Part shown: piece by piece, positions 5,183 through 42,602 of the stretch
Layout: every line of letters begins with the position of its first letter
Numbering within the stretch: position 1 is the stretch's first letter
DNA from: Candidatus Uhrbacteria bacterium
GTDB taxonomy: Bacteria > Patescibacteriota > Patescibacteriia > UBA9934 > GWF2-40-263
Assembly (NCBI GenBank): GCA_016188425.1
Contig: JACPHX010000002.1
Location: 2,373 to 66,372 of the forward strand
Reading direction: 5' to 3'
DNA: 64,000 bases
Notes under the pieces: generated by a model
Told to the model about the DNA's origin: nothing
Seen by the model: only the letters and a program-made list of their open reading frames with translations
The model's database searches: none
Program-made: the position numbers and the translations under genes

Positions 5183-5320
5183 CCTTGCAGGTAAGGATGA
5201 GATCCATGCGGCAAATGTAGGAATGCAATTTCATAGTCCTTTTCTAGGATACCAGATCGAAAGCAAAAGAAATAAAGTTATCCACAGCATACCAAACCTG
5301 ATTCCTGCTGGACTGGCATA

Positions 5321-5360
5321 TAAAATGTGGCCAAGGGGCATGCCCCTTGGCCACATTTTA
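5321..5360. repeat. Perfect 40-nt palindrome, copy 1 of 3
   Basis: TAAAATGTGGCCAAGGGGCATGCCCCTTGGCCACATTTTA reads identically on both strands. It lies between the ndk stop and the RSH gene. Confidence 0.9.
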
Positions 5361-5370
5361 TATGCTGTAA

Positions 5371-5838
5371 TTAAATTCCTTCTCCAAAAACATACCTGTC
5401 TGTTATCTTCTCATAAGCGAACAGTTCATCCTCTTTGAAGAACCGCTTGATTTCCCCGGCGGCCGCATCGACAGAATCTGATGCGTGTACGAGATTGGAC
5501 GGAACGTTCATCGACAAGTCCGCGCGTATCGTTCCTGCGTCTGCCGCACGAGGATTCGTCGCCCCGACAAGTTTGCGCACGCTCTCGATCGCGTCGATAC
5601 CTTCCAGGACAAGAGCCACGACCGGCGTCTGCATCATGAACTGCTTAATGCTCTTGAAGAACACTTTCTCTTTCAGGTGAATGTAGTGCTCATCAAGAAG
5701 TGCGTCGGTGAGACGGACAAACTTGAGGGCAGAAATCTTGAGACCCTTGCGTTCAAACCGACCAAGAACTTCACCCAAGAGATCGCGCTGCAGAGCATCG
5801 GGCTTAATGAGGACGAGCGTGCGTTCGATATTCGCCAT
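5371..5838 (-). CDS. ndk: Nucleoside diphosphate kinase
   Basis: 155 aa with NDK fold motifs (LVLIKPDALQR..., catalytic-His region NLVHASDS). Confidence 0.9.
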   Translation of the reverse strand: MANIERTLVLIKPDALQRDLLGEVLGRFERKGLKISALKFVRLTDALLDEHYIHLKEKVFFKSIKQFMMQTPVVALVLEGIDAIESVRKLVGATNPRAADAGTIRADLSMNVPSNLVHASDSVDAAAGEIKRFFKEDELFAYEKITDRYVFGEGI

Positions 5839-5867
5839 ATGTTTTCCTGAAAACTACCAAGACTCCG

Positions 5868-6815
5868 CTAATATGGCAAGCGCTCGGCGGAAACAGTTGG
5901 CTCCCCGCCCGTGCTTTTCACAAGAATATCTCCTTGCTGATCCGTCCGGAACACCTCTATGTTTCGATCGGCGAACCGATGCAGCACCACGACGTGCGGA
6001 TGACCGTAAGAATTATCCGCCCCTGCCGAAATCAGCGCAATTTCCGGGGTTATCGTATCCAAAAAATACTGGCTATTGGAACTGGAACTGCCATGATGCC
6101 CTGCTTTGAGGATATCAATGTCTCCCATCGAAGGCGCAATCGCTTCTTCCACCTCTTTCTCGATGTCTCCGGTCAAAAGAATCGTCGTGTCGCCATACGT
6201 CAACTTTAAAACCACTGAGTGGTTGTTTGCCGATGTGTCATCGGGCGTATCCGGCATTGCATCCGGCGACAGCACATCAACCGTCACGCCGCCGACATCA
6301 TACTTCTCCCCCGCTCGTACCGATCGGACGACGGCTCCTTCTTCCCCCACAGCTAAATTGAATCGCTTCGCGATCTTAGTATCCCTCTGTGTTTCACCGT
6401 TCCCCCAAATATCTTTCACCTCGTATCGCTCGAGTACGGAGGGCAAGCCGCCGATATGATCAGCATCCAAGTGGCTGGATACCACATAATCGATCGTCCT
6501 ATCCCACGGCTTCATCACCGCGCCGAGCTTGGCAAGCACTTTGGAATCGCGCCCTCCGTCCATGAGCAGCTGCGTGCCATCGGGTGCCTCAAGAAAAAGC
6601 GCGTCTCCTTGCCCGATATCGAACATCCACAATCGCATCTCTCCCAGAGAACCAGACGCCGCAGAGGCCCCAGAGGTGGCGGAGGAGCGGATCAACAAAA
6701 AAATACCCACGCTCATCCAGACGACGAGCAGAAAAACTACGAACCAGAGTTTGCTGCGTCCTTGAGGGCGTCCACGCGAGGTTTGAAGAGCCATAGAAAT
6801 ATCAGGATAAGACAA
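5868..6815 (-). CDS. ComEC/Rec2 C-terminal metallo-beta-lactamase domain protein. Possibly the distal part of a split comEC
   Basis: N-terminal TM helix, then an MBL core: MFDIGQGDALFLE...SHLDADHIGG...AGHHGS. Confidence 0.65.
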   Translation of the reverse strand: MSYPDISMALQTSRGRPQGRSKLWFVVFLLVVWMSVGIFLLIRSSATSGASAASGSLGEMRLWMFDIGQGDALFLEAPDGTQLLMDGGRDSKVLAKLGAVMKPWDRTIDYVVSSHLDADHIGGLPSVLERYEVKDIWGNGETQRDTKIAKRFNLAVGEEGAVVRSVRAGEKYDVGGVTVDVLSPDAMPDTPDDTSANNHSVVLKLTYGDTTILLTGDIEKEVEEAIAPSMGDIDILKAGHHGSSSSNSQYFLDTITPEIALISAGADNSYGHPHVVVLHRFADRNIEVFRTDQQGDILVKSTGGEPTVSAERLPY

Positions 6816-8209
6816 AAGGCACTCACGATCGCGGCCGTATGAGGATCCACCGATTCATAAACCGCATGAGGGACAGAGGCACCTTGCCGTATAACCCATA
6901 ATATCATCGAAGAGAGAAGCACCGCTGGAACCGACAGATACGCGAGGATCGAGGCAGGCAGGAGAAAAGCCATCGGCAACAAAATAAGGCCAACAGCCAT
7001 CAGCAAAGGAACCAAGGGCAAAACGAATACATTGACGACTGGCGCGATCAAGGAGATCGAACCGAAATGCCAAAACATAATCGGCGCGGTCACAAGCGAA
7101 GCCACCAAGCTCCCCACGAGCGCCTCGCGCAGACCAAACACCTCTGGCATCCACGAAAAATATCCCTCGAGGTGATCTGGAATGAACAAAACAGCCGCCG
7201 TCGCCACAAAGGAAAGTTGAAACCCTGGATCAACGAGGAGGACGAACGGATTCAGAAGCAGCATGATCGGAAGCGCAAACGCGAGGAGGCGCATCGGGCT
7301 CCGCGGTCGACGAACCCACTCCGCCAGAAGCACAATCCCCGCCATGATCCCCGCGCGGATGACCGCCGCGGTCGCCCCTGCCAGGAACACATACACAACG
7401 ACCAACACTCCGGTCATGAAAATCCCCCTCCGCCGACCGAATCGTTCAATCGCAAACGCAAAAAAGAAAAACGTGAACAGCGACACATTGAATCCGCTCG
7501 CAGCAAGGATGTGCGACGTTCCCGTCCGCGAGAACGTATCCTGCAGATCATCGGACAACCCGGATGAACCGCCGAGAATCAAACCAGTCACAAACGACGA
7601 GTGCGGTTCTGGAAGCAGTCGGTTGAATCGATCCATCAGCAGAATCCTTGCTCGATACAGCCCTCCTCGCCAGGTCCACAGCCCCGCCTCGGCCGCGACC
7701 GACGACGGGAAGGTGCACAGCGCGTAGACCCCCTTGGTCGCGAGAAACTGGTCGTAAGGAAAACCGTTGAAGGGTTCTGGCCGTTTGAGTTTGCACGTGG
7801 CCGTCAACTGGTCATCTATGAACACCTCCTCCCCCATCGGGAGAAAGACGAGCACTCCCCCTCTTGCCTCCTCCCCACCAATCGTCAAATCCTTCACCGT
7901 CGCTCGTACGCCAGACATCCGCGTATCCACATCCGCGACGCGTCCGTGGATTTCCACTGCATGCTCTGGAAGCGTATCGACCCAAGTGGGCGTCCCCGGA
8001 GCCAGAATGACGCGCAAAATTCCCAAAAACAAACACAACGCAATTAAGCCAACTCGACGAAGCAGACCAGATGAAAAAACCAACAATAACAACGGAACAG
8101 ACAGCGCATACCAGACCCATTCCCCGGGGATCGGGATGAGCAAAGCAACCAAAATACCAAACATCACCGCCAAACAGGCGGTGACGAAAGTCCCAGAGGG
8201 AGAACGCAA
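6737..8209 (-). CDS. ComEC/Rec2 competence-channel membrane domain protein (proximal part)
   Basis: 490 aa polytopic membrane protein with an N-terminal DUF4131-like beta region and competence-domain-like TM block. Overlaps the MBL-domain ORF by 79 nt in a different frame. Confidence 0.6.
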   Translation of the reverse strand: MRSPSGTFVTACLAVMFGILVALLIPIPGEWVWYALSVPLLLLVFSSGLLRRVGLIALCLFLGILRVILAPGTPTWVDTLPEHAVEIHGRVADVDTRMSGVRATVKDLTIGGEEARGGVLVFLPMGEEVFIDDQLTATCKLKRPEPFNGFPYDQFLATKGVYALCTFPSSVAAEAGLWTWRGGLYRARILLMDRFNRLLPEPHSSFVTGLILGGSSGLSDDLQDTFSRTGTSHILAASGFNVSLFTFFFFAFAIERFGRRRGIFMTGVLVVVYVFLAGATAAVIRAGIMAGIVLLAEWVRRPRSPMRLLAFALPIMLLLNPFVLLVDPGFQLSFVATAAVLFIPDHLEGYFSWMPEVFGLREALVGSLVASLVTAPIMFWHFGSISLIAPVVNVFVLPLVPLLMAVGLILLPMAFLLPASILAYLSVPAVLLSSMILWVIRQGASVPHAVYESVDPHTAAIVSAFCLILIFLWLFKPRVDALKDAANSGS

Positions 8210-8240
8210 CGTTTTGTCGATGAGTGACCGGGCGATATCG

Positions 8241-10679
8241 TTAGCGAATCACGAAGCTGATGAGGCGGCCGGGGATGTAAATAACTTTGATGATCTCCTT
8301 CCCTTCCAAAAATTTCTCGACGTTTTGTTGAGCCTGCGCGCGATCGCGCGCATCTACATCGGACAATGTGGGTGAGATCTCGATCGTCCCGCGTACTTTC
8401 CCGTTGATCTGCACTGCGACTGTCACCAAATCATCCACAAGCATCTTCTCCTCAAAGGAAGGCCATCCGCTTTCAAAGACGGATGTCTTGTAGCCAAGCG
8501 TCTCCCAAATCTCTTCACAAAGGTGAGGGGCGAACGGAGCAAGGGCACGCACGAGCATTTCGTAGGAAGATCGCGGCAGCACCTCCGCCGAACTCATTGC
8601 GTTTACAAGGATCATCGACGCCGAGATCGCGGTATTGAACTTCATCGCCTCCAGATCGTTCGTGATCGAATGGATCGCCTTATGCGTTGCCTTCTCGATC
8701 GATGGATTCGTTGCGTCCGCGACAGACTCGCGCAGCTTCCAGAGCTTCTCCAAGAAGCGGCGTACGCCGACCGCTCCGTTGGTATCCCAAGGTTTCTGAT
8801 CTTCCAACGGCCCCATGAACATCTCGTACATGCGCAACGTGTCGGCGCCGTACTGCTCGACGACCTCGTCGGGGTTCACGACGTTCCCTCGCGACTTACT
8901 CATGCGCACGCCATCCGGCCCCATGATCGTTCCTTGATTGCGCAACTTCGTAAATGGTTCCTCGAAATCGATATGCCCCAAATCCTTGAGCGCGTAGCAA
9001 AAGAATCGTGAGTATAAAAGATGCATCACCGCGTGCTCAGCGCCCCCAACGTATAAATCGACAGGCATCCAGTAACGAATCTTCTCCTGATCCGCCATCA
9101 CCTCCTCGTTCTTTGGATCGCAGAAGCGGAGGAAGTACCAAGAGGAGTCGACAAACGTGTCCATCGTATCGCTCTCGCGGCGCGCGGGTTTGTGGCACGT
9201 CGGACACTTCACGTCATGAAACGACTCACTGCGCGCGAGAGGTGATTCGCCTGTGGGCTTGAAATCGACATCCGTCGGAAGTCGCACGGGGAGATCGGAA
9301 GCGGGAACGGCAACCGGGCCGCAGTCCTCGCACCAGATAATCGGAATCGGCGCGCCCCAGTATCGCTGGCGCGAAAGGAGCCAGTCGCGGATGCGATAGT
9401 TCGTGACGCGACGGCCTTTGTTTTTTGCTTCAAGGGCGTCGGTGATTTGTTGTTTGGCATTCTCGTTGGTGAGGCCGTCAAAGATGCCGGATTGAACCAT
9501 AATTCCTGGATCCGTATATGCCCCATCGGACGGCATGAATGCCGTCCCTGCGGGGGGTGCGACGACCTGGGTGATAGGCAGGTTATATTTCTGTGCAAAC
9601 GCGTAATCGCGTTCGTCGTGGGCGGGGACGCCCATGACGGCGCCAGTGCCGTAGGTCATGAGGGCGTAGTCGGCGATCCAAATCGGCACATCTTTGCCCG
9701 TGAGCGGATGCTTGGCGTAGGCGCCGATGAATTGACCAGTCTTTTCTTTTTGCTCGGAGCGATCGAGTTCAGATTTTCGCGCCGTGGCCGCACGATAGTC
9801 CATGACGGCTTTTGCATACGCAGGATCGACGAGGACGTCGACGAGCGGATGCTCGGGAGCCAAAACAACATAACTGACCCCAAAAAGAGTATCTGGCCTT
9901 GTGGTAAAGACAGATATGATTGTTTCTCTACTCTGTGGTGGCCAAGGGGCACGCCCCTTGGCCACATTCACAATATCAAAGTCAATTTCTGTTCCTTCAG
10001 ATTTCCCGATCCAATTCTGCTGCATCGCCTTAATCGATTCCGGCCAGTCGATCTTCTCCAAACCAGCAAGCAAACGATCCGCATATTTTGTAATGCGGAA
10101 GAACCACTGTTCCAGATCCTTTTGGCGCACAACGTTCTTGCACCGATCGCATTTTCCATCAATGACCTGTTCGTTCGCGAGCACGGTCTGGCAACTATCG
10201 CACCAGTTCACAGGAGCCGAGGCACGATATATCAGGTCGTGTTTATAAAAAAGGAGGAACAACCATTGCGTCCATTTGTAATAAGAAGGATCCGCTGTAG
10301 AGATGACGCGCGACCAGTCAAAAGAAAGCCCAAGGGACTTCATCTGCCGTGTATAGTTGGCCATCGCATCATTCGTCGTCTGCTCGGGGTGGACACCCGT
10401 CTTGATCGCAAAATTCTCCGCCGGCAAACCGAACGCGTCGTACCCGATCGGGAACAAAACGTTCTTTCCCTGCATGCGCCGCCAGCGCGTCACGATATCG
10501 ACCGCCGAGTAGGATTCCACATGACCAACGTGGAGGCCGGTCGCGGAAGGATACGGGAACATCACCAGGTGATAGAGGGAATCCTGTGCCTTCGATGGAT
10601 CTTCCGTGGGGAAAAACGCGAAATTCTGTTCCCAACGCTGCTGCCATTTTTTTTCGATGGATTGGTGGTTGAAGGGCAT
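8241..10679 (-). CDS. leuS: Leucyl-tRNA synthetase
   Basis: HVGH (HIGH) motif, KMSKS, class I LeuRS architecture. Start re-placed at [17 protein letters not shown]. Confidence 0.95.
9938..9965. repeat. Palindrome family copy 2, embedded in-frame in leuS
   Basis: GTGGCCAAGGGGCACGCCCCTTGGCCAC with one central mismatch. It translates on the leuS strand as [10 protein letters not shown], inside the variable region before the TTRPDT motif. Confidence 0.85.
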
Positions 10680-10689
10680 AAGGCGGATC

Positions 10690-10745
10690 GTGAGGGTGAT
10701 AAGGGTGGTAGGGGTGGGTCTACAACCCATCCAACGACTGGATAA
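10690..10745. promoter_or_regulatory. Conserved hairpin-containing element in the leuS upstream region, shared with gdh
   Basis: GGTGATAAGGGTGGTAGGGGTGGGTCTACAACCCATCCAACGAC. A near-identical motif sits at 13961-14030: GTAGGGGCGGGTCTCCAACCCGCCCACCGAC. Confidence 0.4.
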
Positions 10746-10811
10746 TGGTACGAGTGTGACAAAAATGGAGGGAAGGGTCAAAAATAAGACGAATTGTCAA
10801 CAGTTTTGGAT

Positions 10812-10841
10812 AAAAAAACGACGTTCCTGGGGGAACGTCGT
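10812..10841 (-). terminator. Intrinsic terminator of the coiled-coil gene
   Basis: AAAAAAA-ACGACGTTCC-TGGG-GGAACGTCGT, a perfect 10-bp stem with a T-run on the minus strand. Confidence 0.6.
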
Positions 10842-10861
10842 GCATAGGGACTTTTATCGAA

Positions 10862-11830
10862 CTACGGCCGCTGGTTCCCCTGATGCCACTCCTTGCGCGG
10901 CTCCTGCTTTTCCACCGGCGGAAGGGGACGCGAATTCTCGATGACTTTCACGGCCAATTCTTGCGACTTCTTATTCGCCTCCTCGACTTCACGGCGGAGG
11001 AGCTGATTATCTTCCGTCTGACGGGTCAGTTTTTCTTGAAAATGAATGATCTCCGCCTGCATGAGCTGACGCTGGGATTCCGATTCTTTGCGTGCAAATT
11101 CCATCTTCGTCTCCCATTCGCGGTTCATCCGTTCCAAGACCCGTGTCTCCGCTTCCGAGATGTCTTTCTGCAAACGTGCGGGGAATGTTTCTACCTGGCG
11201 TTTGAAATCCGCAAACTCAACTTCCTTCGCTTTTATTTCCCCCTCACGCGTTGCCATGTTTTGTTCCTTTTCCTCACGGACAGATTCAAACTGCGCCTCA
11301 TCGCGAGCCCGCTCCAGCTTGGTCGCGTATTCGTATTCTTCCTTCTCCCTATTCCACTGCTTCCGCTTCTGTTCCATCTGTGCAGCGAGCTCCTGATCAA
11401 GCGTAGAATACTCGGCCTCCATCGCCACTTTTTTCTCTTCGTAGTCCGCGAGCAATTGCTCAAGCGCCTGCGCGGCCACTGTCAAATGATACTCATGCTC
11501 GAGCGTCTGCCGCGACAAATCAATGGCCTTCTGCAAATCCAAAAACGTCTGTTGCTGCGCTTCGACTTTTCCCGTCACTTCGCGGAACGTCTGCTCAATG
11601 CTCTGGGAAAGAGTCTCGATGGCTGTCAGTGTCTCCCGCTTTGCGGATTCCATGGTCGGCCGCATAGAGGAAACAGAACGATCTTTTACCGATCGGACAA
11701 AATCGACTGCGGAGGGATCGTGCACCGCGTGGGCATTCGCTTTAAGCTCTTCGACTTGTTTCTGTAGTTTCTCATACTCTTCCAGGAGCTCCGCTTTGGT
11801 CTTTTTCGTGAACAGTATGGATTGCGACAT
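10862..11830 (-). CDS. Hypothetical long coiled-coil protein
   Basis: 322 aa, extremely E/K/Q/R-rich with heptad-like periodicity and no TM segment. Confidence 0.5.
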   Translation of the reverse strand: MSQSILFTKKTKAELLEEYEKLQKQVEELKANAHAVHDPSAVDFVRSVKDRSVSSMRPTMESAKRETLTAIETLSQSIEQTFREVTGKVEAQQQTFLDLQKAIDLSRQTLEHEYHLTVAAQALEQLLADYEEKKVAMEAEYSTLDQELAAQMEQKRKQWNREKEEYEYATKLERARDEAQFESVREEKEQNMATREGEIKAKEVEFADFKRQVETFPARLQKDISEAETRVLERMNREWETKMEFARKESESQRQLMQAEIIHFQEKLTRQTEDNQLLRREVEEANKKSQELAVKVIENSRPLPPVEKQEPRKEWHQGNQRP

Positions 11831-11917
11831 AGAGAATTTTCAAAGACCGTAACATGGGGAGGGAAAAGGTCAAGTATCCTGTACAACCTCCCTTTTTTTG
11901 TCACCATACCATCGACT

Positions 11918-12349
11918 ATGACGCACCAACTCATCCTGACTCCTTTGCAGGTGGCCGTTGCTTCGCTGGAGGCGGCGATCGAAACGCCGGAAACCGGACT
12001 GTCGCCCCTGCAAGAGAACATGCGGCGCGATGCCATCATTCAACGGTTTGAATGCACATTCGAATTGTGTTGGAAAATGATGAAACGAACAATAGAGCAG
12101 ATCGGCGGACGCGAGGAAACAGATGATCTATTTTCAAAAAAAGACCTTTTCCGTCGCGCCCACGAGGCCGCGCTCATCAAAGATCCTGGTGCCTGGTTCG
12201 CCTATCTTTTGGCGCGCAACCAAACCTCCCATGCCTACGACAAGAAAAAAGCAGAGGCCGTGCATGCAAAAGCCATTCATTTTGCCATAGACGCCCGCGC
12301 CCTCCTTACGAAACTCGAGGAGACCTATGCCCCTTCACATACATCCTGA
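11918..12349 (+). CDS. HEPN-domain protein (HI0074 / nucleotidyltransferase-substrate-binding family): toxin of a HEPN/MNT module
   Basis: Fits the HEPN family profile (IQRFECTFELCWKMMKRTIEQ...). Start re-placed at MTHQLILTPLQ. Overlaps the next gene by 23 nt. Confidence 0.65.
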   Translation: MTHQLILTPLQVAVASLEAAIETPETGLSPLQENMRRDAIIQRFECTFELCWKMMKRTIEQIGGREETDDLFSKKDLFRRAHEAALIKDPGAWFAYLLARNQTSHAYDKKKAEAVHAKAIHFAIDARALLTKLEETYAPSHTS

Positions 12350-12626
12350 ACACCTCGACGGGGTGAAAAAAATCCTCCGTCAAATCATTCCGCGTCATCG
12401 AGTGGCCGTGTTCGGGTCACGAGCAACCGGCACGGCCCGCCCGAGCTCTGATTTGGACTTGTTTGTGTACGGCACTGATCCTCTTGACACAGAGACAACC
12501 ACTAACCTCAAGATGGCATTTTCCGAATCGAACTTGCCGTTCTTCGTCGATATCGTCGAGGAGTCAGGTATCGAACAGGATTTTCGAGATGCCATCGAAA
12601 AGCAATTGGTTGATATCCTCCCGTAA
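12327..12626 (+). CDS. Minimal nucleotidyltransferase (MNT/HI0073-like, Pol-beta superfamily): antitoxin partner
   Basis: GSRATGTARPSSDLDL = GS...DxD nucleotidyltransferase signature. 99 aa. Confidence 0.7.
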   Translation: MPLHIHPEHLDGVKKILRQIIPRHRVAVFGSRATGTARPSSDLDLFVYGTDPLDTETTTNLKMAFSESNLPFFVDIVEESGIEQDFRDAIEKQLVDILP

Positions 12627-12635
12627 AACGCTTAC

Positions 12636-12667
12636 AAAAAAACAGGGATTGCAGCCCTGTTTTTTTG
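12636..12667. terminator. Bidirectional terminator between the MNT gene and gdh
   Basis: AAAAAAACAGGGATTGCAGCCCTGTTTTTTT. Confidence 0.6.
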
Positions 12668-12671
12668 TTTA

Positions 12672-13889
12672 TTATTTTATCGCCTCGTTGATCCTCCTAA
12701 GCGCCAACACGAACGCCGCGCGACGCAAATCCGTCCCAAACTCTTGGCTCAATCGATACACATCCTCCGCCTGCTCGGTCATTATTTTTTTGAGACGGCT
12801 CTCCACATCCTCCACGCTCCATTTCTCTCCTTTGAGATTCTGTTCCCATTCAAACGTCGACACCGTCACCCCACCCGCATTCGCGAGGATGTCTGGAATC
12901 ACAGCGATCCCTCGATCAAAAAGAATGTCATCGGCCTCCGGTGACGTCGGGCCGTTGGCAAGTTCCAAAATTACCTTCGCGCCAATCTGAAGCGCATTGT
13001 GTTCTAAAATTTGATTCTCAAGCGCGGCGGGAATCAAAAGGTCACATGGAAGTTCTAATAATGCTTCATTGGAAACCGCACGGCTTCCAGGAAACCCTTC
13101 CGCCTTTCCCGTCTTTTCTTTCCATGCTTCGACTGCCTTAATGTCAAGTCCGCCTTCGTTCACAATACCCCCTCTTGAATCCGAGACAGCGATAATTTTG
13201 TGGCCGTGCTCCGACCAAATCTTCGCTGCGGTCGCACCGGCATTTCCAAATCCTTGGATGACAACCTTAATCGATCCCAAGAGACCGAGTCGTTGCGCCA
13301 ATGTTTCAAACACAAACCAACCGCCAAGCGCCGTCGCGCGATCACGCCCGAGTGATCCGCCGTGGGCGACCGACTTGCCCGTAAACGTCGCTCCCGTCTT
13401 GTCGCCTGTGAGTTTCTGATACTCATCCGTCATCCAATCCATGATCTGCGGCGTGGTATTCACATCCGGCGCCGGCACATCTTTCTGCGGGCCAATCTCG
13501 TCGACGAATGCGCGCACCCAAGCGCGAGAGAGACGTTCCAGTTCGGTCTTCGACAAGGTCTTTGGATCGACTGTTGCCCCACCCTTCCCGCCACCCATCG
13601 GGATGTTGACGACCGCGGTCTTGATTGCCATCCACAGTGCGAGTGCCTTTACCTCCTGGAGATCTGTCTGTTGATGAAAACGGATGCCGCCCTTGTACGG
13701 CCCACGCGCATTGTTGTGCTGCACGCGATAGACCTCGATATCCATCTTGGACCCATCATCGCGATCGATCATCACGTTTTTCTCGTGGATGTGGTTGGGG
13801 GTCTTGAGTTTCTCGATGAAGGATTCCTCAAAAGGAAAAACGGCCTGGGCGCGGGAAAGTTGGCGGAGGGCATTGTCGAAAGCAGACAT
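12672..13889 (-). CDS. gdhA: Glutamate dehydrogenase (Glu/Leu/Phe/Val dehydrogenase family)
   Basis: Catalytic K-rich GGGKGG motif plus an NAD(P) Rossmann GFGNAG. Start re-placed at MSAFDNA. Confidence 0.9.
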   Translation of the reverse strand: MSAFDNALRQLSRAQAVFPFEESFIEKLKTPNHIHEKNVMIDRDDGSKMDIEVYRVQHNNARGPYKGGIRFHQQTDLQEVKALALWMAIKTAVVNIPMGGGKGGATVDPKTLSKTELERLSRAWVRAFVDEIGPQKDVPAPDVNTTPQIMDWMTDEYQKLTGDKTGATFTGKSVAHGGSLGRDRATALGGWFVFETLAQRLGLLGSIKVVIQGFGNAGATAAKIWSEHGHKIIAVSDSRGGIVNEGGLDIKAVEAWKEKTGKAEGFPGSRAVSNEALLELPCDLLIPAALENQILEHNALQIGAKVILELANGPTSPEADDILFDRGIAVIPDILANAGGVTVSTFEWEQNLKGEKWSVEDVESRLKKIMTEQAEDVYRLSQEFGTDLRRAAFVLALRRINEAIK

Positions 13890-14039
13890 AGGAGGGAAGG
13901 ATGACCCGCCGTCGCCCAAATTGCACTGGGCTATGGCGGGCAGGCAGATATTTTAGAGGTGAACAGAGGATAACAGAAGTCGCGACAAAGACAGGTGTAG
14001 GGGCGGGTCTCCAACCCGCCCACCGACACGAAAATGATA

Positions 14040-14306
14040 TCAGAATTTATAAACATCGCTGCGGTGGCCGATACGGATGACGGTTATTTTTTTCGATGTG
14101 CCATCAAGAACGAGAACCAGACGAAATTCCCCGACGCGCAGGCGGGCGTCTCCTAACCGTTTATTGTTCAAGAATTTAAGTACGTTGCTTGGATCTTCCA
14201 GCGAACCCAGCCACGCGAGCTTTTCTGCGATTCGCTTTTGCATGGTTGGATCCAGAGACAACAGCTGTTTTTCTGCCTTGCGCAGAAGAAACAATGTGTA
14301 GGCCAT
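14040..14306 (-). CDS. RelE/ParE-family type II toxin
   Basis: 88 aa. MAYTLFLLRKAEKQLLSLDP...RIAEKL...FRLVLVL...IGHRSDVY fits the RelE/ParE profile. Confidence 0.7.
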   Translation of the reverse strand: MAYTLFLLRKAEKQLLSLDPTMQKRIAEKLAWLGSLEDPSNVLKFLNNKRLGDARLRVGEFRLVLVLDGTSKKITVIRIGHRSDVYKF

Positions 14307-14583
14307 ACCGTTTCTTCAATACGTCAAAAGACACCAGACCTTTTCCTGTTTTCATGGACCGCCGAGCAAGCGCGGCGTCTTTCGCCAATGATTCCGAAGA
14401 ATACATCTCGAGATCCTCCATTACCTCGGCAAAATCTTCATTTGAAAAAAAGAATCCGAGGGTTTTCGCCCCACGGGTAACGCGCGTAAACCCGCGAAGC
14501 GCCCGCGAGGGGCTTCGTTGGATATCGCGGATGGAAGCGGTTCGTTCTTTAGAGAAAAACGGGGAGGGGGGAGGGGTAGGCAT
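14176..14583 (-). CDS. Putative Phd/YefM-like antitoxin. Its frame runs 131 nt into the toxin gene
   Basis: C-terminal region FFFSNEDFAEVMEDLEMYSSESLAKDAALARRS...VSFDVLKKRYGL resembles Phd/YefM antitoxins. No stop codon until 14176, inside relE. A frameshift/indel is suspected. Confidence 0.35.
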   Translation of the reverse strand: MPTPPPSPFFSKERTASIRDIQRSPSRALRGFTRVTRGAKTLGFFFSNEDFAEVMEDLEMYSSESLAKDAALARRSMKTGKGLVSFDVLKKRYGLHIVSSAQGRKTAVVSGSNHAKANRRKARVAGFAGRSKQRT

Positions 14584-14757
14584 AGTGTATAGATTTGTAT
14601 GTAGAGTAGCATCCGAGGGAACGCGGGTCAAAACAAAAAGCTCCGGCGTTCCCATGAGAAAAACGCCGGAGCCGAACGCCAAGGGAACAAGGAACCAAGC
14701 GCCATACCAAGAGCCAAGGATCCAAGTGTCCAAGGACTATAGTGATCACTATAGCGC

Positions 14758-15690
14758 CTATTTCTTGTGTTCCATCGCCTCCAACCACCGCTGCGCGTCC
14801 AACGCGGCCGCGCATCCTGTCCCCGCGGCCGTGACGGCCTGGCGGTATTTCCAGTCGGCGACGTCGCCGGCGGCGAAAACGCCTTCGACATTGGTCCACG
14901 TCGATCCTGGTTTTACCGTGAGATACCCTTTTTCCATTTCCAATTTTCCTTCAAAAATTTTCGTATTGGGCGAGTGGCCGATCGCGAGAAACATGCCGTC
15001 GACCGCCAGATCGGACTCTTCGTTGGTCTTCGTGCTGATGAGACGCAACCCCGTCACCTGTTTTTCATTCCCCATCACTTCCTTCACTCCCGTGTTAAAC
15101 AAAAAATTGATCTTCGGGTTGGTCTTCGCCCGGTCTTCCATGATCGGGGACGCACGCAACTTGTCAGACCGAACCAGTACCGTCACCGATGTCGCGAAGC
15201 GGGTCAGGAACGTCGCCTCTTCCATCGCGGAATCCCCTCCGCCCACGACCGCCACTTTTTTCCCTCGAAAGAAAAACCCGTCGCAAGTAGCGCAGGCGGA
15301 TACGCCGCGGCCTTTGTATTTCTCTTCACTGGGGAGACCCAGATAGTTCGCCGATGCCCCCGAGGCGATGACGACGGCCTTGGCCTGGTATTCCCCTTTC
15401 TCGGTACGGACAACAAACGGACGTCTAGAAACATCAACGCCCAGCACCTCCTCCGCCTTCACGTCGGTTCCAAAACGGACGGCCTGATCTTTGAAAAGCC
15501 GCATCAATTCAGGCCCTTGTATCCCTTTTGGAAACCCGGGGAAATTCTCCACCTCCGTCGTCGTCATGAGCTGCCCGCCCGGCTCCACCCCCTCAAACAA
15601 CACCGGCGCCAAATGCGCCCTTGCCGCATAAATTGCGGCGGTGTAGCCGGCAGGGCCGGATCCGATGATGATGAGCTGGTGCACATCCAT
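14758..15690 (-). CDS. trxB: Thioredoxin-disulfide reductase
   Basis: GSGPAGYTAAIYAAR FAD motif, CATC redox centre, GGGDSAMEEA NADPH motif. Confidence 0.9.
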   Translation of the reverse strand: MDVHQLIIIGSGPAGYTAAIYAARAHLAPVLFEGVEPGGQLMTTTEVENFPGFPKGIQGPELMRLFKDQAVRFGTDVKAEEVLGVDVSRRPFVVRTEKGEYQAKAVVIASGASANYLGLPSEEKYKGRGVSACATCDGFFFRGKKVAVVGGGDSAMEEATFLTRFATSVTVLVRSDKLRASPIMEDRAKTNPKINFLFNTGVKEVMGNEKQVTGLRLISTKTNEESDLAVDGMFLAIGHSPNTKIFEGKLEMEKGYLTVKPGSTWTNVEGVFAAGDVADWKYRQAVTAAGTGCAAALDAQRWLEAMEHKK

Positions 15691-15692
15691 AG

Positions 15693-16010
15693 TTACAAAT
15701 GCTTTTCGATCTTCCCTTTCAAAGACTCCTTGGACATCGACCCCGAAAATTGTTCTACGACCTGGCCCCTCTTGAAAATGATAAAAGTGGGAATCGAGAG
15801 AATGTTGTACTTCTGTGCCAAGGCCCCTTGGTCATCTACGTTTACTTTAGCGACCGTCAATTTATCCCCCATTTCTTTCGCGAGTTCATCCACAAGCGGA
15901 GACATAACCTTGCATGGGCCGCACCAAGGGGCCCAAAAATCCACAATGACGGGGGTCTCGGAGGAGAGGACGGTGCTGTCGAAGTTGGCGGCGGTGAGTT
16001 CGAGAGACAT
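15693..16010 (-). CDS. trxA: Thioredoxin
   Basis: WAPWCGPCK active site. 105 aa. Confidence 0.9.
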   Translation of the reverse strand: MSLELTAANFDSTVLSSETPVIVDFWAPWCGPCKVMSPLVDELAKEMGDKLTVAKVNVDDQGALAQKYNILSIPTFIIFKRGQVVEQFSGSMSKESLKGKIEKHL

Positions 16011-16019
16011 AGGGATAAT

Positions 16020-16059
16020 CGTTACGGATTACGGAAGTGTACGGAATTACGGAAATACG
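16020..16059. promoter_or_regulatory. Phased CCGTAA array abutting the trxA start codon, copy 1 of 2
   Basis: CGTTACGGATTACGGAAGTGTACGGAATTACGGAAATACG = four CCGTA(A) units spaced 8-10 nt. The same 40-mer (2 mismatches) lies upstream of rnc. Confidence 0.5.
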
Positions 16060-16119
16060 AAAAAGAACAACAACCAGGGTTTCACTCTATCATAGGGCTG
16101 GGAGGAGAGGGAGGTGGGG

Positions 16120-16240
16120 TGGGGAAAAAACGTGGGAAGGTTTCAAGGGTCGCAAGGATTTCAAGAGCATCAAGCGCAAACAAAAAAGGCACGGCCCGAA
16201 AGCGCATGCCCTTGCGACCCTTGCCGCCCTTGAAACCCTT
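16120..16240. other. Long nested inverted repeat downstream of infB
   Basis: GGTTTCAAGGGTCGCAAGG ... CCTTGCGACCCTTGCCGCCCTTGAAACC: outer and inner arms of ~11 and 14 bp around a ~50-nt loop. Confidence 0.45.
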
Positions 16241-16246
16241 GGGGCC

Positions 16247-18277
16247 TTACCGCTTCGAAATCCCCTGGATCACCAGCGCGCGCACCCGTCGTTCTTCCTT
16301 GTACGCCTCGATAAGATCCCCGACTTCAGGCTTTACCTTGCCGACATACTGCATCCCGATCTCTTGGCCGGTCTGGCCGGTCTTGATCTCCGAGCGGCCC
16401 AGGCGCAGCTCTTCGATAGTGCCTTCGCCGACGTACTCGCCCAGGTGGGAGAGGCGCAGCTTGAGGCCGGCCACGAGCTTGCCTTGCGTGACCTTGCCGC
16501 CGATGACCCAGCCGTTATCAGTACGCTTGAAGTTCATCAGGACTTCGAAGCGGCCGACTTCCTCGATGACCGTCTCGCTCGGAAGGAGTTTCTCCAGGTC
16601 GGTAATGAGGTCTTCGAAGAGTCGATAAATGACCGTATACGGACGAATCTCCACGTGCTTGTCCCGAGCGAGCGTCTTTGCCGTTTCCGTCGCGGACACG
16701 CCGAAGCCAAGGACGACCGCATGCGTTGCCTCCGCGTTTGCGATATCCGTGTCGTTGACGTTTCCCAATCCTTTTCCAACGACTTTGATGCCGACCTCCT
16801 GGTGTTTCACGGTATCAAGCATGCCCAGAATCGCCTCGAGGGATCCGAGCACGTCGGCACGAATGATGACGTTTACAAACTGTTTCGCCTCTGCTCCATC
16901 GGCCGCCACGGCCTTGATCGACGCGACGTTCTCCGTTCCCACGCGAGACTGCTCGGTCGTCTTCACGCGCTCAAGCGACTTCACATCCTGCGGCACTTCC
17001 ATGATGTCGCCGACGGCCGGCGCCGCTTTCCATCCGAGGATCTTTACCGGGAACGAAGGAGGGGCTTCCTTGACATCCTCCCCGCTCCAATTCTTCATCG
17101 CGCGCACGCGCCCGAACCATTGCCCGCGCGCCGCCAGCGCATCCCCCAAACGCAGCGTGCCGCTTTGGACAAGAACCGTCGCCACCGGACCCGCATTTTT
17201 ATCCACATGCGATTCGATAACGGTCCCGATCGCCAAACGCGTAGGATCGGCGATGATCTTTTCTTTCTCCACCTCGGCCACGAGCAACAGCGCATCCAGC
17301 AGCTTGTCGATGTTCGTCCCCTGCTTGGCTGAAATCGGGACCGCGATCGTCTGCCCGCCCCACTCCTCTGGAATGAAACCGGCGTCGGAAAGTTCGCGCT
17401 TTACCTTTTCAATGTCTGCCCCTGGCGCATCGATCTTGTTGATGGCCGCCACGAACGGAAGCTTGGCGGATTTGATGATGTTGATAACTTCCTTGGTCTG
17501 CGGCCGCACCCCGTCGTCGGCCGCGACGACCAAAATCGCGAGGTCGGCCACCTTGGCTCCACGCGAACGCATCACCGTAAATGCTTCGTGGCCAGGCGTG
17601 TCTATGAACGTCAAAAGCTGGTTGTTGCGCACGACCTGATACGCACCAATATGCTGGGTGATGCCACCGGCCTCCGTTTCCATGACATGCGTCGCACGGA
17701 TGGCATCGAGTAGTTTCGTCTTCCCGTGGTCGACGTGCCCCATCACAACGACGATCGGCGGACGCGGAAGGACACGTTCCTTTTCTTGGGAATCGAGGAT
17801 GGTCTTCAGGCGCATGCTCTCATCTTCCTTCACATCGACCGCCAACCCTTCGTTGACCTCTGCATGGACTTTGTATCCAAGATCCTCGCCGATGATGCTC
17901 GCCGTGTCGATGTCGATGCGGTCATTGATGGAAGCCAGAATGCCGTTGCGCATGAGCTCCTGCATGAGCCGAGGGACGGGAACGTCCAACCGAGACGCCA
18001 ACTCGCGCACCGTCATGACCGCGGGCAAGGTAATATCTTTGATGAGGACCGGGGCTGCGTCGCCCACCGGCCGGCCGGTCATCCCTTTCTGGAGTTCTAT
18101 CTTCTCGGCCAAGTAGTGCTTGCGGCGGTATTCGCCGAACGCACGTTCGATTTTCGGGATCATCCGGTCGTCCACTTTGAGCGCCCGCGCACCGATATTA
18201 AACCCAAGCGTGGGCAGCACGGTGCGAAGCTCTTCGGCAGAACTGTGGAGCCTACGGGCCAATTCGGTAAGATTCAT
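16247..18277 (-). CDS. infB: Translation initiation factor IF-2
   Basis: GHVDHGKT G-domain, DTPGH, full IF-2 domain order. 676 aa. Confidence 0.95.
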   Translation of the reverse strand: MNLTELARRLHSSAEELRTVLPTLGFNIGARALKVDDRMIPKIERAFGEYRRKHYLAEKIELQKGMTGRPVGDAAPVLIKDITLPAVMTVRELASRLDVPVPRLMQELMRNGILASINDRIDIDTASIIGEDLGYKVHAEVNEGLAVDVKEDESMRLKTILDSQEKERVLPRPPIVVVMGHVDHGKTKLLDAIRATHVMETEAGGITQHIGAYQVVRNNQLLTFIDTPGHEAFTVMRSRGAKVADLAILVVAADDGVRPQTKEVINIIKSAKLPFVAAINKIDAPGADIEKVKRELSDAGFIPEEWGGQTIAVPISAKQGTNIDKLLDALLLVAEVEKEKIIADPTRLAIGTVIESHVDKNAGPVATVLVQSGTLRLGDALAARGQWFGRVRAMKNWSGEDVKEAPPSFPVKILGWKAAPAVGDIMEVPQDVKSLERVKTTEQSRVGTENVASIKAVAADGAEAKQFVNVIIRADVLGSLEAILGMLDTVKHQEVGIKVVGKGLGNVNDTDIANAEATHAVVLGFGVSATETAKTLARDKHVEIRPYTVIYRLFEDLITDLEKLLPSETVIEEVGRFEVLMNFKRTDNGWVIGGKVTQGKLVAGLKLRLSHLGEYVGEGTIEELRLGRSEIKTGQTGQEIGMQYVGKVKPEVGDLIEAYKEERRVRALVIQGISKR

Positions 18278-18342
18278 GGGAAATTACAAAAAAGATTGAC
18301 ACAACCTTACCAAGCGCAGGCAAGGGAGTCAATGGAGCTTCG

Positions 18343-18732
18343 TTATGATATAGGCACGAACCTCATGATATCCCGCACCAACTCTGAAAGCGGATGGTCG
18401 GATTTGACCACATACCCAACCGCGCCGAGAGATTTTGCCTTCTCCCGATCCCCCGGCTGCTCGAGGGTCGAGACCAGAAGGACGGGAGTATCGCGCACGT
18501 CATCGTCTTTCTGCACCATGGAAAGGATGTCAAAACCAGTCAGATGAGGAAGGATGAGGTCGGCGACCACAAGCTGGGGACGCCAGCGGTGGATCTCTTT
18601 GAGCACCTGCAATCCGTCCGTCGTGATGCGCGTGTCGACCCCCTCGCGCTTGAGGCGGCGGGCGAGCGTGTCGGCGATGTAGGGATCGTCTTCGACCAAA
18701 AGAACCAATTTGTCGTTCTTGTGCTTTTCCAT
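18343..18732 (-). CDS. Stand-alone response-regulator receiver (CheY-like)
   Basis: LLVEDD...D(phospho-acceptor)...K layout. Start re-placed at MEKHKND. Confidence 0.8.
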   Translation of the reverse strand: MEKHKNDKLVLLVEDDPYIADTLARRLKREGVDTRITTDGLQVLKEIHRWRPQLVVADLILPHLTGFDILSMVQKDDDVRDTPVLLVSTLEQPGDREKAKSLGAVGYVVKSDHPLSELVRDIMRFVPIS

Positions 18733-18776
18733 ACGGCGTGTGACGCTATAATACCACGAGAAAATCACCGCCTTCT

Positions 18777-19550
18777 ATGATTGGATTCCTCCTCATCGAC
18801 AAACCCCTCGGTCTCACATCCAACGACGTGGTCGCGCGCGTCCGCCGGCTCACGGGCGTGCAACGGGTCGGCCACGCAGGCACGCTCGACCCGCTTGCAA
18901 CCGGCCTCCTCATCGTAGGCGTCGGGCGCGAAGCGACCCGAGAATTTCCCCGGTTGGTTGGCTTGCCCAAAACCTACCTCTCCACCTTCATTCTCGGCGC
19001 ACGTTCAACGACAGACGATGCCGAGGGAGAAAAAATAAGCGACCCAGTCCCGTCTCTCACGGAGGAAATCGTCGACCAAGGTCTCCTCCAACTCACAGGC
19101 GAAATCACCCAAACCCCTCCCCAATTCTCCGCGGTCAAAATCAAAGGCAAACCTGCCTACGCCCAGGCGCGCAAAGGGATAGAGGTGGTGATAAAGCCAC
19201 GGCAGGTGACAGTTTCTACTTTCAAAAGAATCGGATCGATCCGTCCACAAGCGGACGGGACGTTTGAGATCGACGTGAGCATCGATTGCTCGTCGGGGAC
19301 GTACATCCGTTCTCTGGCGAGAGACCTGGGGAGAATTCTGGGAGGTGGGGGGTATGTAAAAACGTTGCGACGGACATCTATAGGACCCTTTTCAGCCCAA
19401 GAAGCAATTCCATTACCAGCTGGAATATCCCATACCCAGCCAAGGGGCATGCCCCTTGGCCACATGTCTGATCCTGCCCTTCCAGCCATTCCAGCCCTCC
19501 CCCTGCTCCCCGTCCCAGGCCTTCTTGCCCTCCTCCCTCCCCCCTGCTAA
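18777..19550 (+). CDS. truB: tRNA pseudouridine(55) synthase. The C-terminal ~45 aa are encoded by repeat elements
   Basis: GHAGTLDPLATGLL catalytic Asp motif. The tail ...QPRGMPLGHMSDPALPAIPALPLLPVPGLLALLPPPC is translated from palindrome copy 3 plus the C-rich repeat. Confidence 0.8.
   Translation: MIGFLLIDKPLGLTSNDVVARVRRLTGVQRVGHAGTLDPLATGLLIVGVGREATREFPRLVGLPKTYLSTFILGARSTTDDAEGEKISDPVPSLTEEIVDQGLLQLTGEITQTPPQFSAVKIKGKPAYAQARKGIEVVIKPRQVTVSTFKRIGSIRPQADGTFEIDVSIDCSSGTYIRSLARDLGRILGGGGYVKTLRRTSIGPFSAQEAIPLPAGISHTQPRGMPLGHMSDPALPAIPALPLLPVPGLLALLPPPC
19438..19463. repeat. Palindrome family copy 3 (in the truB tail)
   Basis: AGCCAAGGGGCATGCCCCTTGGCCAC. Confidence 0.85.
19470..19550. repeat. 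C-rich element (copy A); the related copy B lies upstream of tRNA-Glu
   Basis: Shares TTCCAGCCCTCC and CTTCTTGCCCTCC blocks with 54446-54522. Confidence 0.5.
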
Positions 19551-23811: not shown

Positions 23812-24267
23812 CTAACGGCGCTTGCGGCGCGGCTGGTGCATGCCGGACGTGCGTCCGGCATTGGAGATCATCCGCGTCTCGGAAACGGCGCGGTGAAGCC
23901 GCTCGACGAGCACCTGACGCTCGACGGCCGTGAGCTTGCGCTCGGGCTTGGCCACGACGATCGCGGGCGCCGTCTTCTGAACGGGAACGTCGACGACCTT
24001 CGGGGCCGGCTTGGTCGCTTGGACGTCGACTTCACGGCGAAGACCGAAGCGCGAGCGCTCCGGCTTGACGTCGAACTTGATCGACTCGACGAGCTCGCGC
24101 TCCTCCGAGGTCAATCGACCCTTGCGACGCTCCTCGGAAACAGCCGAGGTCTGGTTTGAATTGTGATGAGAAACGGGAACCATGCGGGTTCCCTGACGCC
24201 TGAATCCAGTCTGATTGAAGATCATGAAGATCCTCCGTGGCCCGGGACGGCCGAACAATTGGCGCAT
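23812..24267 (-). CDS. Hypothetical highly basic protein (Arg/Lys-rich)
   Basis: ORF with a strong terminator. No family recognised. The start is uncertain. Confidence 0.35.
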   Translation of the reverse strand: MRQLFGRPGPRRIFMIFNQTGFRRQGTRMVPVSHHNSNQTSAVSEERRKGRLTSEERELVESIKFDVKPERSRFGLRREVDVQATKPAPKVVDVPVQKTAPAIVVAKPERKLTAVERQVLVERLHRAVSETRMISNAGRTSGMHQPRRKRR

Positions 24268-24418
24268 TCAAGCACCAAAGCCCTTATTCAACGCGTAAAT
24301 GGCGCCAAATAACGGCCTTTGTGCGTATCTATTTGAACAAATTAACTTGCAAATATACAAGAAAATATAGGTTTTGTCAATAGTCACCGAGCAAAAACAA
24401 AAAGGGCTTGCGTTGCCC

Positions 24419-24916
24419 TTAGTTTACGAACGCCTCACGAAGCGTAGGTGCATTGAGTACCTTACGAAGAGCCCCACGGAACTGTTCACCGTGATCGGGC
24501 AGGATGGAATAGAGAGTGCCGCCTACGTCCTGGCACAAGATCTCCAAGTTGATCTCTGCGAAGAGTACCTGGATACGAACCGGGATGTGGCCCAATAGGT
24601 CGATCGTTGTGTGTAACGACGCCCTCTTAAACAGGGCTTCGTCTGCCTCTTTATTGGGGTATCCGTCCGTCAAACGAACGAACAGGACGACGAGATCCTT
24701 TTGAGACAGGATATCAGCCGCCAGGCGAGAAACCTGCAGGCCGACACCTGGCGGCAGGGAGACAGATCGCCGCTTCTCCATCACGCGAAGATTTTTCACT
24801 TCCCTGCTCTGCGACAGATACTCGCCCTCGATGATCGCGACGCGATCTGGGGGCGGAGGAGCAAATCGCTTGAACGTCTTCAACAAGGGGTACAATTTCA
24901 GGAAACGAGCATTCAT
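24419..24916 (-). CDS. Hypothetical protein
   Basis: 165-aa ORF heading the surface operon; no recognised domain. Confidence 0.35.
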   Translation of the reverse strand: MNARFLKLYPLLKTFKRFAPPPPDRVAIIEGEYLSQSREVKNLRVMEKRRSVSLPPGVGLQVSRLAADILSQKDLVVLFVRLTDGYPNKEADEALFKRASLHTTIDLLGHIPVRIQVLFAEINLEILCQDVGGTLYSILPDHGEQFRGALRKVLNAPTLREAFVN

Positions 24917-24974
24917 TATGTAACCTCCGTCTCATCTATGAGACACGGAACCCTAGCGCGAATAGTGCGAAGCG

Positions 24975-25865
24975 TCAAGGAGCGGGTGGGCGCCTCGACC
25001 GTCGTGATGATTTTAATTCTGGATACTGAATCTTTTTCCCTTGCGGGCAGCTACACGCCCGCTCGCTCTTATAAAGCCGGTACGCCGCCCGCCGCCAGAA
25101 GAAAAAGAACAGAGCAGCCAACAGAAGAAACAGCCAATTGAAAAGCCAAACCGACTTTGGACGAGGATGCAAAACCGTCACCGACGGGCACTGTGGCAGA
25201 GGCAGCGTCGCGGTCGGAACAAGCGGGAGGCAGCTTGGAGCTAGGATGGGGGGAGGAAGGAGGGGGGAGGTTGGAGGGGGGGGAGTGTCCGGCGGAGCCG
25301 GATCCGGCTCCGCCGGAGAGAATGACGGGGGGGAGGTTGGAGGGGGGGCGGCAATCGTGAACGTTGCGTTGCGAACTTGGCGGACGATATTTGTTCCTTC
25401 CCCGTCGCCAGAAAGCACGGAGGCGTTTTGGAACCGAATATCTGCCCGACCTTCCTTGAGCGTCTTAAACTCTGCCGTGAAGACCAACCCGTCGGATCCG
25501 ACGAATCCACCAGGCGTCAAATCGACTCCCGTGAACTGTATCGTCCCTTGCCCGCGATCGATAAACGGTTCCCGGAACCAGTGGCTGATGATAGTCCCCT
25601 CTGTCGTAATCCCTGTCGCCTCGACCAGTTCAGACGGAAACACGATGGCACCCTCAACGGCATTCACGGGAGTATCTGTTTGCACAAACACATGCACGGT
25701 GAAGGTTTGACCAACCATGAACGCTCCCGAGGCCGGAGCGAGTTCTATCGAAGCGGTTGCGGCGGAGACGGAAAAAGCGGGCAGCAGGCAGCTGGCAGCA
25801 AGCAGCAACGCAAAAAACAGCGAAGTCAATGGCCTTGCTATTCCTTTGAACGTTTTTTCCTCCAT
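24975..25865 (-). CDS. Membrane-anchored surface protein with a cohesin-like domain, Pro-rich stalk and C-terminal TM anchor
   Basis: Signal peptide. A ~125-aa beta-sandwich region matches cohesin topology (VGQTFTVHVFV...VNAVEGAIVFP...GTIQFTG...DGLVFTAEFKTLKEG). PPPTSPP stalk. C-terminal FLLLAALFFFFWRRAAYR anchor. Confidence 0.5.
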   Translation of the reverse strand: MEEKTFKGIARPLTSLFFALLLAASCLLPAFSVSAATASIELAPASGAFMVGQTFTVHVFVQTDTPVNAVEGAIVFPSELVEATGITTEGTIISHWFREPFIDRGQGTIQFTGVDLTPGGFVGSDGLVFTAEFKTLKEGRADIRFQNASVLSGDGEGTNIVRQVRNATFTIAAPPPTSPPSFSPAEPDPAPPDTPPPPTSPLLPPPILAPSCLPLVPTATLPLPQCPSVTVLHPRPKSVWLFNWLFLLLAALFFFFWRRAAYRLYKSERACSCPQGKKIQYPELKSSRRSRRPPAP

Positions 25866-28095: not shown

Positions 28096-28096
28096 G

Positions 28097-28540: not shown

Positions 28541-28549
28541 ACAAACAGG

Positions 28550-35415: not shown

Positions 35416-35645
35416 CCGACAATCAAAAAATCGATACACGGTACTCGGATGAAGAAATCCGTAAGTTGGTCGTGGCGCGACTCTCCGTGCTTTCTTCAGA
35501 TATGCAGATTTCGATTGGCTCCTCTGGTACCTTTACGCGTGACGAGCTCATTGGGCACGTGAACGCAAACGATGATCTTGGACGGAAGATCGAAGAGATC
35601 GAACTCGAGTGGTTGCGCTCGTGGAAAGATAAGGCACACGTATGA
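35412..35645 (+). CDS. Island small protein B (77 aa)
   Basis: ATGA overlaps on both sides. No recognised family. Confidence 0.45.
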   Translation: MTDNQKIDTRYSDEEIRKLVVARLSVLSSDMQISIGSSGTFTRDELIGHVNANDDLGRKIEEIELEWLRSWKDKAHV

Positions 35646-42600: not shown

Positions 42601-42602
42601 TC

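Follow-up and report, generated by a model that had tools for sequence, protein, structure and literature searches.

How does one and the same short palindrome come to stand at three unrelated loci of a bacterial genome, twice inside the reading frame of a housekeeping gene? The question was raised by a first-pass annotation, made from the sequence alone, of 64,000 nucleotides (nt) of a Candidatus Uhrbacteria bacterium (contig JACPHX010000002.1, positions 2,373 to 66,372), hereafter the window. A GC-rich palindrome had been noticed there downstream of ndk and within leuS and truB. Our analysis established that the three copies, near-identical in sequence, make up a real repeat family. The explanation that we favor, with a probability of about 0.5, is a dispersed GC-rich hairpin repeat with a 27-nt unit, private to this lineage and similar to REP elements and to the Rickettsia palindromic elements (RPEs), whose in-frame copies are tolerated passengers.

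Three copies of one palindrome

A pattern search for the 26-nt core TGGCCAAGGGGCATGCCCCTTGGCCA, with up to 3 mismatches allowed (family pattern, GCCAAGGGGCAYGCCCCTTGGC), returned 3 matches in the window, whereas none of 100 dinucleotide-preserving shuffles contained any match (3 copies vs 0 expected). The count of three given by the first-pass annotation was thus right. The copies and the genes that they touch are the following, with positions counted along the window.

Copy 1: palindrome 5316-5365, core 5328-5353, 27-nt unit 5330-5356; no strand assigned; a 50-nt perfect palindrome.
Copy 2: 9938-9967, core 9939-9964, unit 9941-9967; minus strand; arms 9938-9950 and 9953-9965 (13 nt), centre CACG.
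Copy 3: 19437-19465, core 19437-19462, unit 19439-19465; plus strand; 11-nt arms spanning 19439-19460.
ndk: 5371-5838; minus strand; nucleoside diphosphate kinase, assigned from its translation and from PF00334 in the syntenic ndk of relatives; copy 1 lies in its 3' flank.
leuS: 8241-10679; minus strand; 812 residues, 100% identical to MBI2550741.1 (P0001); host of copy 2.
truB: 18777-19550; plus strand; 257 residues, identical to MBI2550751.1; host of copy 3.

The two NCBI proteins belong to a Candidatus Uhrbacteria assembly, on a contig of 68,087 nt. On the basis of these identities and of the Pfam match, the gene assignments made earlier held. The three sites held as well, but their limits had to be redrawn, copy 1 being 50 nt long and not 40 nt, and copy 3 having the arms given above. 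Relative to the core, copy 1 carries no mismatch, copy 2 a single one (in its centre, CACG), and copy 3 two, both at the left end. All three copies share the 27-nt block GCCAAGGGGCAYGCCCCTTGGCCACAT (plus strand reading), that is, exactly 9 codons. To the left of the core the flanks differ (ATGTG, GTGGTG, and ACCCA), and the sole flank in common is CACAT on the 3' side. With a core of 26-28 nt and perfect arms of 11-13 nt, the copies have the build of the short GC-rich palindromic stem-loops of the REP class. No degenerate further copy was found in the window, where half-site matches with 3 mismatches occurred at chance level. Half-sites at 15823 and 15924 were rejected as family members, as they encode the WCGPC motif of a thioredoxin.

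Perfect palindromes can come from some library or assembly artefacts, and unrelated bacteria (Phaeospirillum and a metagenome-assembled genome, or MAG, of the Desulfobacteraceae) coincidentally contain the same 22-mer. Both points would favor an origin of the copies in an artefact of assembly, as the first-pass annotation had itself considered, or in a chimera, or else their independent origin by chance. However, two sequencing runs, SRR12113421 and SRR12113418, have Logan assemblies that cover 16.5 kb and 1.4 kb of the region; these agreed with the NCBI MAG with zero differences and reproduced copies 2 and 3 at 100% identity. Moreover, the reading frames were intact across both coding copies, and the shuffles predicted no match at all. 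Since copies 2 and 3 are the same in independent assemblies, an artefact of one assembler is unlikely, and we regard artefact or chance, taken together, as close to negligible.

The copies inside LeuRS and TruB

Copy 2 is read in frame as VAKGRAPWP (LeuRS residues 239-247, codons 9939-9965), in a peptide stretch that includes APWPPQSR. It is located between the conserved motifs NWIGKSEG and TTRPDT, in a hypervariable turn. Indeed, among 120 LeuRS orthologues the stretch between these motifs measures 17-46 residues, with a base length of 19-21, and it measures 31 residues here; in orthologues with a whole inserted domain it is 132 residues long. An AlphaFold2 model built on 50 orthologues contained a single segment with pLDDT <50, namely residues 240-251, which are predicted to form the turn joining strands 226-236 and 253-259.

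Copy 3 is read in a frame that differs from that of copy 2, as QPRGMPLGH (TruB residues 221-229, codons 19437-19463; surrounding stretch, GMPLGHMSDPALPAIPALP). The TruB_N domain covers residues 23-177 and the TruB_C_2 domain residues 178-211. A 9-residue gap stood opposite QPRGMPLGH in all 44 aligned TruB orthologues (44/44), and in the AlphaFold2 model residues 211-240 were predicted as coil, with a pLDDT of 55-70 and no secondary structure.

Neither VAKGRAPWP nor QPRGMPLGH was present in these regions in any of the 238 other LeuRS or TruB proteins retrieved. This comparison with orthologues, which the first-pass annotation had proposed, supports its claim that both peptides are in-frame additions in variable regions. 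The words RAPWP and HAPWP, seen in two orthologues, were rejected as counterparts because they lie in the conserved C-terminal region and not in the loop. From the occurrence of the same 27 nt at three unrelated loci, together with its absence from orthologues, we infer that the coding copies are insertions. As with RPEs, they lie in frame and without a stop codon within unrelated housekeeping open reading frames (ORFs), and the models place them in surface loops, hypervariable and predicted as disordered, where the fold can accommodate them (LeuRS 240-251 and TruB 211-240).

It had also been proposed that copy 3, together with a C-rich element downstream, pushed the truB stop codon ~45 codons past the catalytic domain. 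This had to be abandoned. The C-rich stretch encodes ALPLLPVPGLLALL, which aligns with the conserved C-terminus of TruB orthologues (..LIPV..LLSRL; ALPLIPVSDLLSRV in P0176) and was modelled at pLDDT 95 as a strand and a helix packed onto the domain. By alignment and model, the C-terminal 15 residues of TruB are native sequence and no read-through tail, and the palindrome accounts for one 9-residue gap.

A further remark of the first-pass annotation was that symmetry lets the palindrome encode peptides on either strand. As a matter of fact, the three open peptides encoded by one strand are also those of the other. No frame of the core has a stop codon on either strand, and the same is true of 65% of arm-shuffled palindromes of this composition. 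Stop codons do occur in the outer, AT-rich arms of copy 1, in keeping with the presence of the GC core alone inside genes. Given a unit of 9 codons and a core free of stops in every frame, the coding copies may be viewed as tolerated passengers. The earlier proposal that in-frame insertion is tolerated, or selected for, is thus kept in its first part; selection is needless, given that 27 nt preserve the frame and that so many arm-shuffled palindromes are open as well.

Other hairpins and repeats were seen in the leuS and truB genes of relatives. The LeuRS gene of another Uhrbacterium (P0053; locus L020, 4419-4461) contains a different hairpin, GAGCCGAGGGATCTCG..CGAGATCCCTCGGCTC, with 16-nt arms and a z of -4.8, in frame within the same LeuRS loop as copy 2. 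The TruB linker of P0138 (L026, ~1560-1620) is encoded by a weaker, imperfect hairpin with a z of -2.4. In leuS of P0041 (L022, ~10690-10740), the LeuRS loop is encoded by tandem GGGGCGAGGGG repeats, and the loop peptide of the P0059 LeuRS looks repeat-derived, judged from the protein alone. The L020 and L026 hairpins suggest that in-frame hairpin events recur in this group; the P0138 linker and the P0041 loop are further lineage-specific, repeat-derived loop expansions. Apart from these, some LeuRS proteins of Patescibacteria (P0047, P0058, P0061, P0063, and P0070) carry a PF04266 (ASCH) domain, and it is in P0047 and P0058 that the loop before TTRPDT is 132 residues long.

A bolder reading would make short hairpin repeats a general and active source of lineage-specific loop insertions in proteins of the Patescibacteria, or candidate phyla radiation (CPR). 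Under it, a frame-neutral, stop-free 27-nt unit would spread by an undescribed mechanism that lacks the hallmarks of RAYT or MITE systems, and would seed terminators between genes and new surface loops in essential genes. The L020 LeuRS and L026 TruB hairpins would then be further instances. We consider such a general role doubtful.

Two more features of this sort were noticed within the window. An unrelated 30-nt perfect palindrome, TCCGGCGGAGCCGGATCCGGCTCCGCCGGA, lies at 25288-25317 inside the ORF at 24975-25865 (minus strand), where it is read in frame as PAEPDPAPP, in the Pro-rich linker of a protein without Pfam match. The TsaD protein (50275-51378, minus strand) has a low-complexity insert of ~25 residues, EKFEIRNPKSETNSKIENRKGKRG, at 50940-51010; it is encoded by short repeats of the GAAAT/TCGAAA type and splits the Pfam TsaD match in two.

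Copy 1 behind ndk and possible roles of the palindrome

Copy 1 begins 5 nt past the ndk stop codon, that is, at the position of a terminator, a point that the first-pass annotation had not raised. Its GC stem is flanked by ATAAAATG and CATTTTAT, which gives it an A-tract/stem/T-tract architecture. On the strand of ndk, the U-rich AUUUUAUAU comes after the stem. Folds of -43.9 and -45.8 kcal/mol were predicted for it, with z values of -5.9 and -7.5. Two relatives (L021 and L022) with matching gene order (comEC, ndk, then a gene of ~400 residues) have an A5-stem-T5 bidirectional terminator at the same spot after ndk (AAAAACCCCGAC-CATGT-GTCGGGGTTTTT and AAAAACCCTGAGC-ACG-GCTCAGGGTTTTT). In the window as a whole, perfect hairpins whose arms measure 10 nt or more numbered 20, vs ~1 in shuffles; most of them are A-tract/stem/T-tract shaped, each with its own stem sequence. 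A terminator consensus scan did not list copy 1, probably since the stem continues into the T-tract.

The mRNA 3' of copy 2 reads CCACAGAG and that of copy 3 reads AUGUCUGAUCC, with no U-tract at either. As read from the sequence, a GC stem-loop followed by a U-tract just past a stop codon, as in intrinsic terminators, is therefore found at copy 1 alone. With a U-rich run behind copy 1 and behind neither of the others, termination of transcription is expected at copy 1 only. Copy 1 is probably the bidirectional intrinsic terminator of ndk. Incidentally, ugd (UDP-glucose dehydrogenase) lies between leuS and comEC in the relatives L021 and L022, while here comEC directly follows leuS (8209-8241).

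One may ask whether the three copies share a function in cis. They might be a binding site for one protein, be it a regulator, a nucleoid protein, or a tyrosine recombinase, or an RNA hairpin for an RNase or an RNA-binding protein; in the RNA version, the hairpin would link what happens to the mRNAs of ndk, leuS, and truB. The 11-6-11 layout is indeed reminiscent of dif and lox sites, the loop, CAUG, is self-complementary, and rny, encoding RNase Y, lies directly downstream of truB (start at 19663). Furthermore, both coding copies have kept perfect stems, copy 2 differing in its loop and copy 3 at its outer end. Yet these differences amount to three substitutions only, too few for a conservation test, and the coding copies lie mid-gene, away from promoters and untranslated regions. 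The leuS and truB genes would not survive a recombination between copies, the sequence is found at these places in no relative, and Rfam returned only four tRNAs in the window, with no match at the palindromes. We hold a functional cis-element to be improbable.

A target for restriction-modification or for a nucleoid protein, as put forward in the first-pass annotation, found no support. The core does hold nested MscI, SphI, HaeIII, and StyI-type sites, but so does any GC-rich palindrome. With 20 TGGCCA and 17 GCATGC sites, vs ~18.5 estimated from base composition, neither site is avoided or enriched in the window, and the GCATGC (SphI) site is absent from copy 2. No restriction-modification gene, and no methyltransferase or endonuclease domain, was found by Pfam in the ~50 window ORFs scanned. 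That the palindrome serves as a restriction-modification or methylation target is hardly credible.

Extent, origin, and known counterparts

Logan contigs extended the region by 2.3 kb to the left of the window and 6.3 kb to the right and added zero new copies. The estimate of hundreds of copies genome-wide, made in the first-pass annotation, thus has no basis in the ~72.5 kb covered. For public genomes, the GTDB representatives (596 Gb), among which the window's genome is not included, were scanned with GCCAAGGGGCRYGCCCCTTGGC. The matches were rejected as family members: they have an identical 10-nt arm but another centre and other flanks, and they consist of a two-hairpin, REP-like repeat (in Phaeospirillum tilakii and a Pseudomonadota MAG) and of isolated single hairpins. 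Given the very many GC-rich hairpins in 596 Gb, the match of the 10-nt arm was judged a coincidence. The JGI metagenome scan gave one match, the Desulfobacteraceae contig also found in the GTDB scan, which is not a family member; the IMG/VR scan gave no match to the pattern, and plasmids and phages gave sub-threshold partial matches only. At protein level, a local HMMER test indicated that even a perfect 10-residue match scores an E of at least 23 at protein database size, above the E limit of 10 that applied to peptide searches for more in-frame copies.

The two-hairpin repeat is a multi-copy, REP-like element in its own right (..GGAGGGCCnnnnGGCCCTCCGCGGGATT-GCCAAGGGGCGCGCCCCTTGGC), whose second hairpin shares its 10-nt arms with the window palindrome, probably by coincidence. 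Its loci are as follows.

Phaeospirillum tilakii: L001, L002, L006-L008, L011-L013.
Pseudomonadota MAG: L005, L009, L014-L016.

Several observations weigh against the dispersed repeat that we favor. All three copies in the ~72.5 kb fall within 14.1 kb and none in the other ~58 kb, and no other member turned up when GTDB representative genomes, JGI metagenomes, and IMG/VR were scanned for the exact pattern; with three copies only and no further member in these collections, the multi-copy, genome-wide status of the family is unproven. Pfam identified no transposase, RAYT/Y1_Tnp, or recombinase among the window ORFs scanned, and no target-site duplication, common target motif, or flanking direct repeat was seen at any copy. 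The databases contained no close relative with an empty site, the nearest relatives being 61-66% identical (66% for LeuRS), so that insertion was deduced and not observed. Finally, the closest LeuRS relatives have expansions of their own, of 12-14 residues, at the turn that holds copy 2, which makes the ancestral length of this loop ambiguous.

Some of these observations fit the main rival explanation, local templated copying of the ndk terminator stem. According to it, the terminator of ndk arose at its present site, and two duplicates of its GC stem were placed in genes 4.6 and 14 kb away by template-switching during replication or by short-patch ectopic repair at hairpin-prone DNA, with no genome-wide family and no transposase. 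The grouping of the copies within 14.1 kb, the lack of a transposase among the window ORFs scanned, and the lack of a visible target-site duplication would be expected, and the full 50-nt symmetry of copy 1 and the palindrome at 25288-25317 are what hairpin-templated correction would yield. However, three points cluster this tightly with a chance of ~12%, so the clustering is not significant (P ~0.12), and sporadic template switching would not usually yield two independent ectopic copies of an identical 27 nt. Local copying appears to us rather unlikely, even as the foremost competitor.

In the dispersed-repeat explanation, the hairpin would be copied between loci by a copy-and-paste process. 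An enzyme encoded elsewhere might transpose it in trans, or short stretches might be copied ectopically from a template. With genes as densely packed as here, most new copies would land in genes, and the survivors would be those that preserve the frame, bring no stop codons, and fall in permissive disordered loops. The coding copies would then be translated as loop filler and would not act as functional modules.

The survey of window ORFs and repeats yielded some observations unrelated to the palindrome. Ten ORFs had no Pfam match at E <=0.001, nine of them in the block 23812-32885 and the tenth at 35642-36283; they include a protein of 1097 residues at 28550-31843. The ORFs at 24975-25865 and 25838-26755 are weak paralogues. 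An inverted repeat with 25-nt arms that are 92% complementary (CGCTGCTAACGCTCGGGGTTGGCAG / CTGCTAACGCCGAGCGTTAGCAGCG) lies at 43433-43491, at the boundary of the ORFs 42429-43301 and 43470-43841.

We place the repeat among the dispersed palindromic repeats, a known class to which it adds a new member, and assign it to no named family. By analogy, it is of the same kind as REP, SPRITE, and RPE elements and as mitochondrial GC-clusters. The latter, found in yeast and other fungal mitochondria, are GC-rich mobile palindromes of ~30-50 bp that occasionally lie in frame in protein genes, such as var1; they belong to organelle genomes, with an AT-rich background and hundreds of copies, and nothing indicates a shared ancestry with the window repeat. 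REP and REPIN elements are said to be mobilised by RAYTs, transposases of the IS200-like Y1 type. In size and shape, REP elements come closest to the window repeat, as stem-loops of 20-40 nt that are GC-rich, are located downstream of genes, and can influence the ends of transcripts (PMC3184786). Nevertheless, REP elements are extragenic by definition and present in tens to hundreds of copies, whereas two of the three copies here are intragenic and three were seen in ~72.5 kb (PMC3184786). REP palindromes are imperfect, while ours are perfect; they often have a 5' GTAG, which flanks none of the window copies; and they flank a RAYT gene, of which none was seen in the window ORFs scanned.

SPRITE, described in 2011, is a dispersed repeat with the structure of an intrinsic terminator (PMC3049150). 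The window repeat resembles it as a terminator-like dispersed repeat, but SPRITE is longer and multi-copy, and here only copy 1 is in a terminator context. MITEs are likewise non-autonomous repeats able to extend or interrupt ORFs in frame, as in the in-frame insertions of QMITE1 and QMITE2 in Coxiella (PMC5896051). They measure 100-400 bp (~50-500 bp in a wider definition) and have terminal inverted repeats and target-site duplications; in contrast, the whole element here is a single hairpin, with neither feature seen.

In behavior, the closest counterparts are the RPEs (Ogata et al. 2000), which, as summarised in PMC10969869, are palindromes that have entered unrelated housekeeping genes in frame, at sites that the protein fold tolerates, and are translated as an extra peptide. 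They are ~100-150 bp long, four to five times the length of the window unit, form about ten families with dozens of copies, and encode a conserved peptide of ~30-50 residues vs 9 here. The window repeat differs further in the three copies seen, in belonging to another phylum, and in having one copy that would double as a terminator. At 27 nt, or 9 codons, its unit is far smaller than the Rickettsia elements. The window unit is not known to be related in sequence to the RPE families. All in all, in-frame palindromic and terminator-like repeats have precedents in the literature (PMC10969869, PMC5896051, PMC3049150, PMC3184786).

For annotation, our results mean that the truB tail is to be treated as native sequence and that the hairpin past ndk is probably the terminator of that gene. 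As matters stand, the palindrome is a three-copy case of a known phenomenon. Should the complete genome contain many copies, the palindrome would represent compact selfish palindromic DNA that persists within essential genes in a CPR bacterium with a streamlined, gene-dense genome, and it would provide a concrete source for the numerous small lineage-specific insertions in CPR proteins.

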